Assembly: GCF_030384885.1 (NCBI RefSeq)
Contig: NZ_CP128613.1
Reading direction: 5' to 3' (one strand)
DNA from: Escherichia coli
Lineage (GTDB): Bacteria > Pseudomonadota > Gammaproteobacteria > Enterobacterales > Enterobacteriaceae
Length of the DNA stretch: 64,000 nt
Within the stretch, counting starts at the first letter, position 1. Each line of letters begins with the position of its first letter. The notes under the pieces are model-generated. The model worked only from the letters and a program-made list of their open reading frames with translations. It was not told the origin of the DNA and searched no databases. The position numbers and the translations under genes are program-made. Shown here in pieces: positions 35,254 to 39,659 of this stretch.

Positions 35254-35504
35254 TTTTTATTTCTCTTTCAGGTGAATAGATCGTTTTTACTATTTTATCC
35301 CGCACAAATCATCGTTAAAATCAGATTATAGTGTAGGAATAATTCGTTTTTTACGAGCCATTGAAGGATTTGCGTCATCAGTGATGAGATGAGTTTTTGA
35401 CGGCTGTAAGCGCTGACATGTGACCCTAAGCCCTGATAATCATAGCTTAAGGTCAGGATTTCTGAGGGATTAATTAGGAAAAGTAATAATAAAATCGCAC
35501 TGTG

Positions 35505-36785
35505 CTATAGCTGTTTATTCCAGAGATGCTTGAAAATATCTAATGTTGAGACAACATTGGCAGGCGACATTCGGTTTAATGAGGGTAGAAAGGGATGAGC
35601 CTCCAGGAAGTTGATAAAACGAGTCGCGCTTGCCAACGTCGAATACCGCATTTCATTTGCTTTCTTGTTTCCTGTAAGGTTACAAACAGCCATTGAATAA
35701 TCACGGGCGGAAAATGCACGCCAGACATTATTTCTCACGCCACCACTCAAAAATAACCGCGGCGGCGTATCATAATGAGTCGTTTTCTCGCCGCGTTCTT
35801 TCACAAAGGAAATATGGCACCGGCTTTGATGAATGTGCTGTAAGTTAGCCATCAGACAACCGCCTAATATAAAGCACTCGTGATCAAGGTAGTGTTGAAT
35901 ATTTATAGAATATGCTTCAGTCAGTGCTCTAACCAGTTCAAAATGGCGATATGCCGGAAGAACCGGTTTCACCAGCATCCCCGGATCGTTTTGATGTAAT
36001 ATCGCCCGACCATAATCAATATCAAATAAGGTATCACGCCGCATAGTAAGTAACTCCTTGCGTTGTACGTGATGCGCCAGTGTACCTGGAGACAAACGCT
36101 CTTCATAACTTGATGCATATTGATAATGCGACTCTACCGCTGATGAAGAATAATTTGTTGAAATAGCGACGACTCTACCGCTTTGTTCTTCTGCGGTAAC
36201 AAGACTATAAAGATAGTTGTTACTACCGTTAAACTTTACGCGAAAAGCGCGGGTAGCGAGAGAAATATCAGAAGCAGAAGAGTACTGGCAACTTTCTTTA
36301 TAGTTTACTTCCCGGGCTAGTTTCATCAACTCACGGTTAAGCCCTGTGCTATTAAGAAGTAATAATTTACGGATATCTGCAAGTGAAGCGCCTTGCTCAA
36401 TCATCAATGCTAAATGTGTTCTTCGCGGCGTTGTATTTACATGATCCAGAGTGATAAAAGTTCTGGAACAATGATGACAATACATTCTCCTCTGCCCCTG
36501 AGCTGAATAGCCATACTTTTTCAGAGATGTGCTTCCGCAAGCTGAACATTGTGGAACCAACCCTCTCCATGAATGATTAACACGATTACGATAAATATTA
36601 AGAGATCGTTCAGATATCACAGGAAACAAGTAACCGCATTCCCGACATAAAATATTTTTGCCTTGTGCAATATAATCCTGGCTATTCAACAACCCCAGGT
36701 TTTTGCATCCTGGTGTTTTGCAACAATCAACATTTACGTTGGTAAACATATTCACTCCCTGCGAATACCCGGATATTATCGTCAT
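35505..36785 (-). CDS. Cys-rich zinc-ribbon protein of unknown function (last gene of sulfatase cluster)
   Basis: 426-aa ORF; N-terminus carries CCx4C plus three CxxC pairs (CRECGY, CSACGS, CHHCSRTF); no CxxxCxxC radical-SAM motif seen. Confidence 0.5.
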   Translation of the reverse strand: MTIISGYSQGVNMFTNVNVDCCKTPGCKNLGLLNSQDYIAQGKNILCRECGYLFPVISERSLNIYRNRVNHSWRGLVPQCSACGSTSLKKYGYSAQGQRRMYCHHCSRTFITLDHVNTTPRRTHLALMIEQGASLADIRKLLLLNSTGLNRELMKLAREVNYKESCQYSSASDISLATRAFRVKFNGSNNYLYSLVTAEEQSGRVVAISTNYSSSAVESHYQYASSYEERLSPGTLAHHVQRKELLTMRRDTLFDIDYGRAILHQNDPGMLVKPVLPAYRHFELVRALTEAYSINIQHYLDHECFILGGCLMANLQHIHQSRCHISFVKERGEKTTHYDTPPRLFLSGGVRNNVWRAFSARDYSMAVCNLTGNKKANEMRYSTLASATRFINFLEAHPFLPSLNRMSPANVVSTLDIFKHLWNKQL

Positions 36786-36878
36786 ATGTCAAAGAAAAGA
36801 ACCTGATTCAATGTGTAACATTGAATCAGGCGGGCATAGCCCTGAAAGGCATACATTACATTTATTATGGTTATCAGA

Positions 36879-38372
36879 TTAGCCCCAGGTTACCGCTTCC
36901 GGTTTATCACCTCTGGCTTTCATTAATGAATCATTATCAATATCGGCTTTATACTTTAAGAACTTACCATACATTTGTTTTTCAATGTCTGGATTTTTAC
37001 CTATCTGATTAATGGTCTCAAAACGATCGGTTTTGAGGTTGTATAAGTACTTTGGCTTATTGTTACGATCGATGATCATTTTCCAGTCACCATCACGTAT
37101 CGCCCATTCGTCGGTTGGATCATCCTGGAATGGCATGTCAATTCCGAAGATTAATGGCTTTTCACGTTTTAGCGCCTTGTTCTCAAGGACAGGAACCAAC
37201 GATTCGCCATCAAAAGTGCGGTCCGTCGGTAATTTGAAGTTCATTATTTTCGCCAGCGTAGGCATCCAGTCCAGACCATAAACGGGAGTATCTGAAACCA
37301 TTCCCTTTGGAAGATGCTTTCCGTATTTAATAATCGCCGGAACACGGATGCCGCCTTCCCAAAGATTATCCTTGCGACCGCGTAATCCATCAGTTTCCCC
37401 TGCCAAATTCAGCTCATACACTTTGCGCGCTTCACGGGTTACTGGGCCGTTATCACTGGTAAAAATAACGATGGTGTTATCTTCTTCACCCATCGCTTTG
37501 ATTTTATCCAGTACTTTTCCAACCTGAGCATCCAGATAACTGATGTTGGCATAATATTCTCCTGTACCACGCCAGGGTTTATCCGCCCAGTCGCCATAAA
37601 ATAAATCAGGATGCTGCTTCTGATAGTCGCTCATATAATGTGAGTACATGTCGAGGTATTTTTTGGGCGAAGCCAGGGGACTGTGCACTTCGGTAAAAGC
37701 GACATAAAGGAAGAAAGGCTTACTATCCTTTTTGTTATCCAACCAGTTAACGACTTCCGAACTGACATACTCACCGCTCATTTTATCGGCTCGTGGAGTG
37801 GGTTGCCCGTTACGTAGCCAGCCTGTCGGGTAAACTATGCCATAACGCGGGCGTTCTTTAGCGTTATCTAGCGTGGCGTCGGTAACAAAGCCCGCCGTAT
37901 TAACCAGTGAGTAATCAAAGCCCATATCTTTTGCCTGAGGCTGATCGGTACGATCGCCGCCTGCATTCAGATGCAGCTTACCCATCATTGCCGTGTCGTA
38001 CCCTTGCGCTTTGAGTAGATTAGCAATCGTGAGTTCGTTACGCCCTAAGGCAACATCTTTGCCTGAAGGAATCCATGAGCGAATTCCAGCACGAAATGGC
38101 ATCCGGTCGGTTAATAGCCCAGCGCGTGAAGGTGAACTTAAAGGGGCGGGGGCATAGTAGTCAGTAAATTTGACCCCTTCCTGGGCAAGCCTGTCGATAT
38201 TAGGTGTTTTAACGATCTGATGACCATATGTTGCTAAATCGCCATAACCTAAATCATCCGCCATAATAATGACTAAATTAGGTTGTTTAGCCTCTGCGGC
38301 TAAGGCAGGACTAAAAGCATTCCCTGTGCAAACTGCAAGGCCGATCAAACTGGCCATTAACGTTTTCTGCAT
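36879..38372 (-). CDS. Periplasmic sulfatase, Ser-type (arylsulfatase family)
   Basis: 497-aa ORF with signal peptide and sulfatase N-terminal signature …NLVIIMADDLGYGDL…APAPLSSPSRAGLLTD… (S-x-P-x-R rather than C-x-P-x-R). Confidence 0.85.
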   Translation of the reverse strand: MQKTLMASLIGLAVCTGNAFSPALAAEAKQPNLVIIMADDLGYGDLATYGHQIVKTPNIDRLAQEGVKFTDYYAPAPLSSPSRAGLLTDRMPFRAGIRSWIPSGKDVALGRNELTIANLLKAQGYDTAMMGKLHLNAGGDRTDQPQAKDMGFDYSLVNTAGFVTDATLDNAKERPRYGIVYPTGWLRNGQPTPRADKMSGEYVSSEVVNWLDNKKDSKPFFLYVAFTEVHSPLASPKKYLDMYSHYMSDYQKQHPDLFYGDWADKPWRGTGEYYANISYLDAQVGKVLDKIKAMGEEDNTIVIFTSDNGPVTREARKVYELNLAGETDGLRGRKDNLWEGGIRVPAIIKYGKHLPKGMVSDTPVYGLDWMPTLAKIMNFKLPTDRTFDGESLVPVLENKALKREKPLIFGIDMPFQDDPTDEWAIRDGDWKMIIDRNNKPKYLYNLKTDRFETINQIGKNPDIEKQMYGKFLKYKADIDNDSLMKARGDKPEAVTWG

Positions 38373-38392
38373 AATTATTCCCTGATAAAAAA

Positions 38393-39154
38393 TTAGAAAT
38401 CATAACCAAGCATATAAATCATTTGATCGCCAAAGCCATCGTAGCCCAGCTTATTATCGAAATAACGCCACGTCACACTGGCTTTCCAGCGAGGATAGAA
38501 CTTCCAGGCAATAGTTAAACCGCCATTTAATCCGTTCCGGCCAAATTGCTGCTCCGTGTAAGCATCGTTCCTGTCCAGTTCTATTTCATTCCAGTTAGAT
38601 AAAACAAATTTTTCGTCAAATAACATAAATGGCAATACTGCTGTCCAGCCAACAACATAACCATTCCAACCATTCGTTTGACCATATTTAGCTGATACGT
38701 AGTCACCAGATTGATTATGTAATCCAATATACGGTTTAAAAAAGCCCCACTCGCCGTTCCAGCCGAGGTAACCGAATCCATAAAACATGTCCAGATCGTC
38801 ACCCCATGAGTTATCCCATTGGCCATAAATTTTGCCAAAGAATGTCATATCAGAGTCAAAGAGTCTGACATGCGTCATTGCTGAAACCGTATGATTTCTC
38901 CCTGCTACAGCATGATTGAGTACATTACTTTCATAAAATGAGTAAAATTCTGCTTCTTTAAAATTTACCCCAAAATCCGCAGTCACTTTCCATACTTCAC
39001 CACGGTGAGTGTTTACAAATCCACTATTCCAGTCTGCATAACCCGCATTTATTGAACCAAAGGTTCCTTTATATTCTAATGAAGAATATGCAGGAAAATG
39101 ATAGATAGCTGTTATCAGGGTACACGCAATAAGAAGTCGTCTTTTGGCAGACAT
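38393..39154 (-). CDS. Outer-membrane channel, Tsx (nucleoside-specific channel) family-like
   Basis: 253-aa ORF with signal peptide, aromatic-rich beta-barrel-like composition and C-terminal …MLGYDF resembling the Tsx C-terminus; first gene of the leftward three-gene cluster. Confidence 0.6.
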   Translation of the reverse strand: MSAKRRLLIACTLITAIYHFPAYSSLEYKGTFGSINAGYADWNSGFVNTHRGEVWKVTADFGVNFKEAEFYSFYESNVLNHAVAGRNHTVSAMTHVRLFDSDMTFFGKIYGQWDNSWGDDLDMFYGFGYLGWNGEWGFFKPYIGLHNQSGDYVSAKYGQTNGWNGYVVGWTAVLPFMLFDEKFVLSNWNEIELDRNDAYTEQQFGRNGLNGGLTIAWKFYPRWKASVTWRYFDNKLGYDGFGDQMIYMLGYDF

Positions 39155-39659
39155 ATAATATGATCTCCATTCATTGTTTTTATGGTTCCATAGAAATCAA
39201 TACATCAGATAATTCATTTTTATTAAGAATGACCAGGCCAGTATATTTAAAGATGACTATCGAAGCGTGATGAAGATCGCAGATTACTTTTGCGAACGGG
39301 CGGAGAGATATCGTGTTTCAGAAAATGTGTCTATTTTAAATATCACCCTTTGATTTATAGGCATTTTTCATGATGAACTTAGCATTGACTGCTGAACGTA
39401 TTTCTTTGTCTCTCTATAGTATTACACTAACCTTTAATAATTAATTTCCTTTAGCTATTCACTTTTGATAGAGGAAAACACCTTTTTTTGTGAATCCCTG
39501 ATATATTTAAGTTAAATAAATTGATGTATTGAAATATTATTCCGTAAAAATGCGAGGCGTCTTCAGAAAAAGAATTGATAAAACAGAAGTGAATTAAAAG
39601 CGCTGTATAATAGCGGCGAGTGCTTGAGGCTATCTGTCTCAGGCATTAGCTGAACGGCA

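Follow-up and report, generated by a model that had tools for sequence, protein, structure and literature searches.

The sulfatase cluster between nhaA and hokC

The window, i.e., the whole stretch of 64,000 nucleotides of Escherichia coli DNA that was analysed, is 100% identical to the genome of E. coli strain 2013C-4282. As described in the initial annotation, it harbors three minus-strand open reading frames between nhaA and hokC (38393-39154, 36879-38372, and 35505-36785), each of them intact, and an AT-rich leader upstream of the first gene (39155-39617, 31% GC). The cluster has a GC content of 42%, compared to 49.5% for the whole window and 51-55% for the flanking genes. The channel gene is separated from the sulfatase gene by 20 nt, and the latter from the third gene (gene 3) by 129 nt. 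Genes for glycosidases, sugar transporters, or inner-membrane transporters were not found within the cluster, and none of its open reading frames encodes a transporter or catabolic enzyme for a desulfated product.

The first gene (38393..39154, minus strand) encodes an outer-membrane channel of the Tsx/OmpK family of 253 aa, which carries a signal peptide and ends in Phe. At the level of Pfam domains, the label "Tsx-like" applies (Channel_Tsx, E 3.9e-13), with a match confined to the C-terminal 148 residues. The second gene (36879..38372, minus strand) encodes a periplasmic S1-family sulfatase of 497 aa (Pfam Sulfatase, E 8.9e-58) with a Sec signal peptide (..ALA/AE). Its classification as Ser-type also holds, since residue 79 is aligned with the residue that becomes formylglycine in human steryl sulfatase; Ser79 is encoded by the codon AGT (38136..38138, minus strand) and lies in the motif S-S-P-S-R. 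Ten codons downstream, GAC (38106..38108, minus strand) places Asp89 in the position of Gly in L-T-G-R of the sulfatase signature. This G89D exchange is specific to the strain studied here; Gly was present in every other orthologue examined, among them those of four E. coli genomes with the same haplotype. Gene 3 encodes a cytoplasmic protein of 414 aa, a probable local regulator (35505..36749, minus strand). Its start is most likely 36749, 36 nt inside the listed open reading frame: this codon is preceded by the Shine-Dalgarno sequence GGGAG, corresponds to the RefSeq start, and is the position at which all 37 homologues begin ("MF..").

Ancestry of the cluster and the empty site of K-12

The three genes are indeed absent from K-12 at the nhaA-hokC site, as had been stated. 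In K-12 TG1, the starts of nhaA and mokC are only 585 bp apart. BLAST placed the breakpoints at window positions 35490/35491 and 39499/39500, i.e., 4,009 bp comprising the three genes and the leader (35491..39499) face 81 unrelated bp in K-12-type genomes. The junction, previously estimated at about 250 bp upstream of nhaA, lies 237 bp from its GTG start codon, and the aligned flank on this side shares 321/337 identities with K-12. Among 5,426 complete E. coli genomes, about 1,275 contain the cluster. The empty site was found in 4,124 genomes, counted where at least 80% of the K-12-type junction sequence was matched (with 95-100% identity in nearly all cases).

The cluster had been regarded as inserted between nhaA and hokC, but this polarity is wrong. 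The order dnaJ-[cluster]-nhaA is common to E. albertii, E. whittamii, Klebsiella, Citrobacter, Kosakonia, Phytobacter, and one further enterobacterium, and in Salmonella the cluster adjoins nhaA, directly upstream. Overall, the ancestral position and order were confirmed in 16 species-level loci, with identical site, order, and orientation in at least eight genera. Moreover, no integrase, tRNA, flanking or att-like repeats, or active insertion sequence were found at the cluster, the sole junction repeat being an AT-rich microhomology of 7-13 bp. Therefore, it is K-12 that carries a deletion. A horizontally acquired island that was inserted in this lineage would be in line with the low GC content relative to the flanking genes, the absence from K-12 and most E. 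coli, and the repeated gain and loss of nhaAR-flanking modules inferred by Lescat et al. (2014; PMC4182557). But besides the conserved position and the lack of mobility functions, the GC deficit itself recurs in other genera (5-8 points relative to the flanks in Klebsiella and Kosakonia, ∼3 points in Salmonella), so that the low GC content characterizes the cluster as such and does not point to a recent arrival. In addition, the K-12 junction sequence recurs in the empty-site genomes, as a single deletion would predict. Such an acquisition is thus largely refuted by synteny, and we consider it very improbable. One observation fits it nevertheless: the closest relatives of the two E. coli haplotypes of the cluster are other Escherichia lineages, and homologous recombination may have restored or replaced the segment in some E. 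coli.

The suggestion that the cluster could alter nhaA regulation was not substantiated. The 237 bp beside nhaA are shared with K-12, and gene 3 already preceded nhaA in the ancestral order, which leaves no evidence for a new regulatory effect. A terminator scan did not reveal any terminator-like site between gene 3 and nhaA; read-through into nhaA is therefore possible.

Loss of the maturase gene in Escherichia

In most other genera, the cluster contains a fourth gene, which encodes a radical-SAM sulfatase maturase (anSME) and is paired with a Cys-type sulfatase. This combination was found in Salmonella, Citrobacter, K. quasipneumoniae, Kosakonia, two Phytobacter species, UBA3516, and the loci L008, L011, and L013. 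In every Escherichia sampled, the maturase gene is absent and the sulfatase residue is Ser. The latter applies to E. coli (both haplotypes), E. albertii, E. whittamii, and Escherichia sp. MOD1-EC7003, whereas Cys (TGT/TGC) occupies the formylglycine position in 17/17 non-Escherichia orthologues with a readable motif. Comparison with Klebsiella and Salmonella assigns the site of the deleted gene to the spacer between the sulfatase gene and gene 3 (36750..36878, minus strand). The terminator has been kept at the 5' end of this spacer, and the ribosome-binding site of gene 3, ATTCGCAGGGAGTGAAT, at the 3' end; between these two elements, Klebsiella and Salmonella carry a radical-SAM/SPASM gene of 390-397 aa. 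No maturase remnant was detectable in this spacer. The deletion is clean, with both flanking elements retained.

The maturase of this cluster was found in 0/5,426 complete E. coli genomes. The nearest E. coli gene is aslB, present in 5,425 of them, whose product shares 49% protein identity with the Klebsiella cluster maturase. We propose that the maturase gene was cleanly deleted in the Escherichia ancestor, and that the precursor residue was changed from Cys to Ser by a single base (TGT to AGT). Maturation of the Escherichia sulfatase would then have to come in trans, most likely from the core anSME AslB, the neighbour of which, AslA, is likewise a Ser-type enzyme (S-S-P-T-R, i.e., S-S-P-x-R). 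The exchange may have been neutral, since anSMEs accept both Cys and Ser and four other lineages have lost the maturase but kept Cys. Later on, one E. coli lineage would have deleted the whole cluster, leading to the empty allele of K-12 and ∼76% of the complete genomes.

A sulfatase without its cognate maturase could also be an inactive relic in a cluster that is being lost. The Ser-type sulfatase, the loss of the cluster from most E. coli, and G89D within the signature of this strain's sulfatase agree with decay, as do scattered pseudogenes, namely gene 3 with an internal stop, a channel gene that is truncated or, in one E. albertii, frameshifted, and an IS1 insertion. G89D and these pseudogenes indicate that the locus may be dispensable. 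But between E. coli and E. albertii, all three genes are under strong purifying selection (dN/dS 0.03 for both the channel and the sulfatase gene, 0.08-0.13 for gene 3) over a dS of ∼0.5-0.8, which accumulated since the split of these species, i.e., after the maturase was lost. Furthermore, the open reading frames are full length and annotated as intact in most sampled carriers, and the promoter and terminator elements have remained conserved in this genus. Decay is therefore a rather unlikely explanation.

Regulatory elements, gene 3, and a possible function of the cluster

Upstream of the channel gene, a box with the sequence GACACATTTTCTGAAACAC here and CAACATnnnnTGACAC in other genera (39313..39331, minus strand) is conserved in position in 16 loci from at least eight genera, amid otherwise diverged intergenic DNA. 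It is located at a fixed distance of ∼30 nt upstream of a CRP-like site, and the cluster's own regulator may use it as an operator. The CRP-like site TGCGATCTTCATCACG (39266..39281, minus strand) matches 8/10 consensus positions. A single match of this quality is weak (P ∼0.16 per shuffled 350 nt), and its significance depends on conservation: almost all co-directional loci have a site with at least 8/10 matches 95-119 nt upstream of the channel gene (in L011, the distance is 69 nt), and loci with an inverted channel gene have one 168-245 nt upstream of the sulfatase gene instead. The -10-like hexamer TATACT (39240..39245, minus strand) places the center of the CRP-like site at about -40.5/-41.5, as in a class II CRP-dependent promoter, and TAnACT occurs at equal spacing in most loci. 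Based on this conserved site and spacing, a putative CRP-dependent promoter ∼90 nt upstream of the first gene would drive expression of the channel and sulfatase genes.

The initially implied co-transcription of the entire cluster has to be qualified, because a conserved intrinsic-terminator-like hairpin with a stem of 12-14 bp and a T run (36801..36831, minus strand; terminator scan) separates the sulfatase gene from gene 3. RNAalifold detected compensatory double changes in 8/12 pairs of the stem (19 loci). This hairpin would lower downstream expression. The adjacent 3'-UTR box GTATGCCnnTTAGGGCnnTGCCC (36832..36854, minus strand) is nearly invariant and includes a 4-bp GGGC/GCCC mini-hairpin; it did not match any Rfam family.

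The gene 3 product consists of two C4 zinc ribbons (the second of InsA type), a helix-turn-helix, and a C-terminal RNase-H-like transposase fold. RefSeq and UniProt name it "IS1 family transposase" or "IS1/IS1595 N-terminal zinc-binding domain", and both the zinc ribbon and the fold would suit a mere IS1/IS1595-type transposase unrelated to the sulfatase. This view is already contradicted and retains hardly any probability: gene 3 is single-copy per genome and under purifying selection, its neighbors are constant from Escherichia to relatives at 30-33% identity, mobile-element scars are absent from the outer junctions of the cluster, no DDE triad is conserved across 83 family members, and the full-length IS1 transposase model scored only 28.5 bits (cut-off 100), matching the N-terminal 84 residues alone. 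Since it is single-copy, gene 3 is probably a domesticated IS1-like regulator, i.e., a transposase-derived, putative DNA-binding protein acting locally. The acidic residue E291 and two histidines are near-invariant, so that the protein may yet have a non-canonical catalytic role. Relatives at 33% and 30% identity are likewise encoded beside a maturase and a sulfatase, the former also beside a Tsx-like channel at another chromosomal site; those at 22-24% identity are divergently oriented from deo/nucleoside operons, a typical position for a regulator. We therefore regard gene 3 as the likely transcription factor of the cluster, possibly acting at the upstream box.

The linkage of channel, sulfatase, and gene 3 down to 30-33% gene-3 identity, including the other chromosomal site, argues for one functional unit. 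This partly supports the earlier idea of an "uptake and desulfation module", but without an inner-membrane transporter in the cluster, uptake beyond the periplasm is unaccounted for. Sulfated glycans or mucin-derived sugars, named earlier as examples, would be merely conceivable substrates. In our model, the Tsx/OmpK-type barrel would admit a small sulfated compound to the periplasm, where the Sec-exported sulfatase, assigned by family and export signal, would remove the sulfate; in the ancestral cluster, the anSME encoded downstream would generate the catalytic formylglycine in the cytoplasm. Taken together, we favor an old enterobacterial locus that was inherited vertically, serves to handle an extracellular sulfate ester, and was lost by K-12 and about three quarters of E. 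coli, with a probability of roughly 0.65 for ancestry and the proposed promoter, maturase, and regulator roles jointly. Alternatively, the cluster could serve sulfur scavenging, i.e., sulfate release for assimilation as by Klebsiella atsBA, rather than carbon catabolism. The desulfated product for which the cluster offers neither transporter nor catabolic enzyme points in this direction, and sulfur supply governs the classical arylsulfatase operons of enterobacteria. But the conserved element appears to be CRP-like rather than a recognizable CysB/Cbl site, and we judge this purpose unlikely, albeit worth considering. Sulfur scavenging is compatible with most of the favored model, from which it differs in physiological purpose alone.

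Comparison with known systems

The same hokC-nhaAR locus was drawn by Lescat et al. (2014) as a variable "putative cerebroside sulfatase" module, one of five present/absent modules around nhaAR, carried by B2, D, and F strains and Escherichia clades; a strong B2/non-B2 divergence of nhaAR was also reported (PMC4182557). In their view, gain and loss of the module took place within E. coli, whereas our data point to an ancestral and deleted one; the genes that it contains, its presence in other genera, the missing maturase, the Cys/Ser state, and the third gene are not part of their analysis (PMC4182557). It is the sole paper on the locus in the searched literature, which contained no experiments on activity, substrate, expression, or regulation of the cluster. 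PDB 3ED4, a structural genomics entry named "arylsulfatase, E. coli", is ∼96% identical to the sulfatase over residues 6-497, including the S-S-P-S-R motif, but has the canonical LTGR instead of LTDR; the structure is unpublished, as are function, substrate, and maturation state (PMC9063841). While the variable module and this structure were already known, the maturase loss and Ser state in Escherichia, the purifying selection, the nature of gene 3, and the conserved, putative CRP-type promoter with the covarying terminator-like hairpin are new.

Like the Tsx nucleoside channel and Vibrio OmpK (PF03502), the cluster channel is a small barrel of the outer membrane that has a signal peptide and ends in an aromatic residue. 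It differs from its closest named protein, scoring 119 bits with the NCBIfam equivalog NF008574, well below the cut-off of 282 bits. RefSeq calls it "outer membrane protein OmpK". No relative with a solved structure was detectable by sequence. At this level of similarity, the substrate specificity of Tsx/OmpK cannot be transferred to it. Gene 3 shares with IS1 InsA and IS1-family transposases the InsA-type zinc ribbon followed by a helix-turn-helix and the C-terminal RNase-H-like fold, but has an extra N-terminal zinc ribbon, lacks conservation of the catalytic triad, and, unlike a mobile IS1 element, is syntenic. Finally, the ancestral cluster resembles aslA-aslB of E. coli, which combines a periplasmic S1 sulfatase with a neighboring radical-SAM/SPASM formylglycine-generating enzyme; atsB-atsA of Klebsiella is likewise a pair of sulfatase and anSME genes. 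The Escherichia cluster differs from such pairs by the lack of a maturase gene, its sulfatase is only distantly related to AslA-type enzymes, and the cluster adds a dedicated Tsx-family channel and a transposase-derived protein.

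Gene content and origin of the nhaA-hokC interval

The interval between nhaA (34087-35253, minus strand) and the hok/sok locus (sok, identified by Rfam, at 39618-39770; mokC at 39768-39920 on the plus strand) lies in the window in the orientation opposite to the K-12 map, and the queried segment 35254-39677 is 100% identical to E. coli strain 2013C-4282. The three intact minus-strand genes that the initial annotation had placed here were recovered at their proposed coordinates: gene 1, coding for a channel (38393-39154), gene 2, coding for an S1 sulfatase with a Sec signal peptide (36879-38372; Pfam sulfatase), and gene 3, coding for a Cys-rich protein. 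For the latter, the start is most likely at 36749 rather than 36785, with a GGGAG ribosome-binding site and a start position shared by all homologues. The channel, named OmpK in RefSeq, matches Pfam Channel_Tsx partially (residues 106-253, E 3.9e-13) and carries a signal peptide and a C-terminal ..GYDF with a final Phe, hallmarks of outer membrane proteins that place it in the Tsx/OmpK family. Its sequence gave no match in the PDB, and no close characterised relative was found by NCBIfam and PDB sequence comparison. A PADLOC scan of all three proteins remained without hits, and a defence function of the cluster was therefore dropped. The leader (39155-39617) has a GC content of 31%; an Rfam search of 34900-40300 at E up to 1 returned only sok/hok, so that neither the leader nor the 3' UTR contains a known RNA.

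The absence of this cluster from the corresponding site of K-12, suspected in the initial annotation, was confirmed by alignment with K-12 TG1, where nhaA start and mokC start are 585 bp apart. The alignment ends at 35490 and resumes at 39500; between these points, the window contains 4,009 bp and K-12 81 bp without a detectable counterpart. The junction lies upstream of nhaA at a distance of 237 bp from its start, in agreement with the estimate of about 250 bp, and these 237 bp are common to the window and K-12. The full cluster is present in about 1,275 of 5,426 complete E. coli genomes, and 4,124 E. coli genomes match at least 80% of the length of the K-12-type empty site, nearly all records at 95-100% identity. 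Among the carriers are sampled B2 lineages, namely O25b:H4 (ST131-type), O127:H6 (the serotype of EPEC E2348/69) and one APEC O2:K1 strain. The B2 allele of nhaAR, the neighbour of the cluster, is linked to virulence.

Gene 3 was chosen as the most specific marker for tracing the cluster outside E. coli. At an identity of at least 52%, it is found only in Enterobacteriaceae. In Klebsiella quasipneumoniae, E. albertii and another enterobacterium it is part of the same cluster in the dnaJ-nhaA interval, and the Salmonella cluster is located directly upstream of nhaA. A scan of one genome per species added 16 loci (Escherichia sp. MOD1-EC7003, E. albertii, E. whittamii, four Citrobacter, S. enterica arizonae, three Phytobacter, two more Klebsiella, Kluyvera, Kosakonia and one MAG), with identical neighbours wherever the locus is long enough to show them. 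The cluster is therefore not the insertion it had been taken for: it occupies the same site in at least eight genera. Gene 3 is the immediate or a close upstream neighbour of nhaA in every genus, and the K-12 arrangement is therefore derived. No integrase or mobility gene, tRNA, att site, direct repeat or active insertion sequence was detected at the cluster, which thus has none of the marks of a genomic island. Its GC content is also below that of the flanks in Klebsiella and Kosakonia (5-8 points) and in Salmonella (~3 points), and low GC is therefore no sign of recent arrival. Judged from this comparison of loci, the cluster is ancestral at the nhaA site and K-12 carries a deletion.

The K-12 junction, TAATAATTAATTT, combines the end of the left flank (window 35484-35490) with a 13-bp stretch in the cluster leader (39435-39447). 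This 13-bp microhomology hints at a deletion mechanism and was possibly used in the event. The next 50-80 bp beyond it do not align, which speaks against a simple one-step deletion, and no source of the 81-bp filler was found among the fetched loci.

Our conclusion is consistent with, and sharpens, the work of Lescat et al. (2014; PMC4182557), who drew five modules of variable presence, one of them a "putative cerebroside sulfatase" module that lies between hokC and nhaAR. This ancestral, variably present locus is thus already catalogued, and the observation, although real, is an ordinary one; the presence of the locus alone is not news. A published function for the cluster was not found in the literature searched.

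Two deep E. coli haplotypes can be distinguished along a stretch that runs from nhaA through gene 3 to the 3' half of the sulfatase gene (window about 33650-37650), with a breakpoint within the sulfatase gene at about 37450-37650 and 98-100% identity to its right. They carry the B2/non-B2 divergence of nhaAR (Lescat et al. 2014) on into the cluster. Gene 3 differs between them at ~19% of its nucleotides with a dS of 0.94, which corresponds to the E. coli/E. albertii level. The window haplotype is nearest to Escherichia sp. MOD1-EC7003 (94%) and the B2 haplotype to E. whittamii (95.6-97.3%), a pattern that suggests a donor lineage. Upstream of nhaR, a decayed fimbrial operon is located at about 29300-33084 (24-3831 of L001, the retrieved window locus), with a frameshifted chaperone gene, an usher gene that is truncated and contains an internal stop, and a 319-aa adhesin-like ORF that is still intact (32125-33084). 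K-12 contains only a fimbrial fragment and IS1 at this position.

Putative regulatory elements and the nature of gene 3

Alignment of the diverged upstream regions identified three elements, which are found at fixed spacing in almost all loci: a conserved box (CAACATnnnnTGACAC, 39313-39331), a CRP-like site about 30 nt downstream of it (TGCGATCTTCATCACG, 8/10, 39266-39281), and, about 20 nt further, a -10 element TAnACT, here TATACT (39240-45). This spacing places the centre of the CRP-like site near -41, as in class II CRP-dependent promoters, at which CRP binds to a site centred near -41.5 from the transcription start. With the 8/10 site, a correctly spaced TATACT and conservation across genera, the region represents, by sequence alone, a candidate class II promoter.

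A second conserved region follows the sulfatase gene. It consists of a 23-nt box on the minus strand (GTATGCCACTTAGGGCnnTGCCC, 36832-36854) just upstream of a terminator-like hairpin with a T run (36801-36831). Compensatory double changes were found in 8 of the 12 pairs of the hairpin stem among 19 loci. This covariation suggests that channel and sulfatase genes probably form one unit with a leaky terminator at its end; the maturase gene, which follows in most other genera (see below), and/or gene 3 would then probably be expressed below the channel-sulfatase level. Of the proposed co-transcription, the channel-sulfatase part is hence probably correct, but it is doubtful, in view of the hairpin, that all three genes are strictly co-transcribed. 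A terminator scan gave no terminator-like site from gene 3 to nhaA. The 23-nt box is almost invariant from Escherichia to Kosakonia, whereas the surrounding coding sequence is less conserved; it has no Rfam match and could serve as a binding site for a protein or as the seed of a small RNA derived from the 3' UTR.

Gene 3 itself belongs to no Pfam family. Its product contains eight invariant cysteines arranged as two C4 zinc ribbons, the second of which is of the InsA/IS1 type (NCBIfam NF050000 above cut-off; Pfam Zn_ribbon_InsA in 9 of 83 relatives). Next comes a helix-turn-helix, which gave a weak HlyU/ArsR-like match. Among 1.8 billion representative proteins, a profile search identified 321 relatives, the full-length ones at 18-41% identity. 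With the distant relatives added, the AlphaFold model of the C-domain reached a pLDDT of 92.8, compared to 55 with 37 close homologues. A novel sulfatase maturase or iron-sulfur protein was rejected, since the cysteines are accounted for by the zinc ribbons and the remainder adopts a transposase fold; FtrD-like Pfam matches had E >1. An IS1-family mobile element was likewise rejected. The full-length IS1 transposase model NF033558 reached only 28.5 bits (cut-off 100) and covered residues 80-163 only, and in the sequence alignment of 83 family members the sole conserved acidic positions are E291 (98%) and E/D187 (83%). With one near-invariant acidic residue and no conserved Asp, there is no DDE triad. 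Moreover, gene 3 is found at a median of one place per genome, with constant neighbours across genera and under purifying selection. The simplest reading is that gene 3 derives from a domesticated transposase and would now act as a local DNA-binding regulator.

Relatives of gene 3 at 33% and 30% identity also adjoin maturase and sulfatase genes: the former has a Tsx-like channel gene beside it, at another chromosomal site, and the sulfatase next to the latter is 58% identical to that of the window. More distant relatives (22-24% identity; L015 4291-5694 and L016 6001-7374) are oriented divergently to nucleoside operons, which are either deoB/deoD/nupG-like or comprise deoC-deoA-deoB-deoD and a nucleoside ABC transporter. 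This suggests that transposase-derived regulators of nucleoside catabolism may form a wider family. Gene 3 thereby points to a transposase-derived protein family fixed beside catabolic operons; such exaptation is, to our knowledge, rarely documented in bacteria. Literature searches for domesticated transposases or IS1 and for the Salmonella and UPEC locus tags returned nothing relevant.

Catalytic signature and substrate of the sulfatase

The sulfatase matches Pfam PF00884, the catalytic domain of S1 sulfatases, over residues 31-378 (E 8.9e-58) and 81 PDB sulfatases at E <1e-10; PDB 3ED4 (structural genomics, unpublished) is ~96% identical to it. An N-terminal signal peptide (MQKTLMASLIGLAVCTGNAFSPALA/AE) indicates export to the periplasm. 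The C/S-x-P-x-R signature is present as S79-S-P-S-R83, and S79, encoded by AGT, aligns to the formylglycine position of human steryl sulfatase, so that the initial assignment as a Ser-type enzyme was correct. The auxiliary L-T-G-R part of the 12-residue signature reads L-T-D-R in the window strain. This G89D change (38106-38108) is accompanied by T95A (38088-38090). The signature S-x-P-x-R-x-x-x-L-T-G-R is otherwise invariant: all further orthologues examined have Gly89, among them four E. coli genomes that share the window haplotype, the B2 type, and the orthologues from other Escherichia species and from the other genera. G89D may impair sulfatase maturation or activity in this one strain.

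The nearest solved structures (steryl, carrageenan, GalNAc-6-sulfatase and arylsulfatase A) differ in specificity and score alike (E 1e-47 to 6e-53). Therefore, no substrate specificity can be assigned, and "cerebroside sulfatase" was rejected as an annotation echo. The cluster encodes neither a glycosidase nor an inner-membrane transporter. The channel gene has the reverse orientation in Salmonella, two Citrobacter species and K. spallanzanii (L004, L023-L025, L028), where a gene for a periplasmic 5'-nucleotidase-like protein follows it, and one or two arylsulfate sulfotransferase genes flank the cluster in Salmonella and the same two Citrobacter species. These neighbours hint at aromatic or nucleoside-like small sulfate esters, which they would favour at least as much as glycans. 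The initially proposed mucin or glycan substrate may still apply but gained no support.

Maturase loss and the Cys-to-Ser change in Escherichia

In most non-Escherichia genera sampled, a radical-SAM/SPASM maturase (anSME) of 380-400 aa is encoded between the sulfatase gene and gene 3. It was found in Salmonella, three Citrobacter (a fourth Citrobacter contig ends before the sulfatase), K. quasipneumoniae, Kosakonia, two Phytobacter species, UBA3516 and two more distant loci, and every maturase-positive locus has Cys (TGT/TGC) as the sulfatase precursor residue. All Escherichia sampled (both E. coli haplotypes, two E. albertii, E. whittamii and MOD1-EC7003) lack the maturase and have Ser (AGT), one base from TGT. 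Accordingly, tblastn of the window detected no adjacent cognate anSME as in atsBA/aslAB-type pairs, and this maturase was found in none of the 5,426 complete E. coli genomes. The Escherichia spacer retains the conserved box and hairpin, which elsewhere precede the maturase gene, and the gene-3 ribosome-binding site ATTCGCAGGGAGTGAAT, which elsewhere comes after it. K. oxytoca, K. spallanzanii, Kluyvera intermedia and Phytobacter massiliensis lack the maturase, too, yet have kept Cys. Their spacers differ, indicating that the maturase was lost several times independently; the Ser precursor is restricted to Escherichia among the loci sampled. No maturase coding remnants were detected by tblastn at relaxed thresholds in the spacers of Escherichia, K. 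oxytoca, K. spallanzanii, Kluyvera or Phytobacter massiliensis.

The split of E. coli and E. albertii postdates the loss of the maturase, and dN/dS since then is 0.03 for both the sulfatase and the channel gene and 0.08-0.13 for gene 3. Judged by this selection on sequence, the cluster genes stayed functional after the loss. We favour maturation of the sulfatase in trans, with AslB as the simplest source; the Ser change may have adapted the sulfatase to AslB, or may be neutral. The cluster provides a clean natural case in which a sulfatase has lost the maturase dedicated to it and changed its precursor residue, yet has remained under strong selection. It bears on sulfatase maturation in E. coli, and how this organism matures its sulfatases is a long-open question. 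Together with the transposase-derived gene 3, the maturase loss and Cys-to-Ser change under continued selection are what this analysis adds; neither was reported in the literature searched.

We tentatively propose, with a probability of roughly one in three, an undescribed family of domesticated IS1-like regulators combined with a rewiring of Escherichia sulfatase maturation to AslB. The members of this gamma-proteobacterial family would combine two zinc ribbons with a helix-turn-helix and an RNase-H fold that is catalytically dead, and would act locally as transcription factors of catabolic operons, controlling sulfatase clusters in Enterobacteriaceae and deo/nucleoside operons in other lineages. 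Gene 3 would act with CRP at the conserved box 39313-39331. Escherichia would have lost the dedicated anSME and exchanged Cys for Ser, making the sulfatase a client of AslB, and this dependence would confine sulfatase activity to anaerobic conditions. The nearest E. coli gene to the lost maturase is aslB, present in 5,425 of 5,426 genomes. AslB and the Klebsiella maturase share 49% protein identity, and AslA, the neighbour of AslB, is likewise a Ser-type sulfatase, with the signature S-S-P-T-R.
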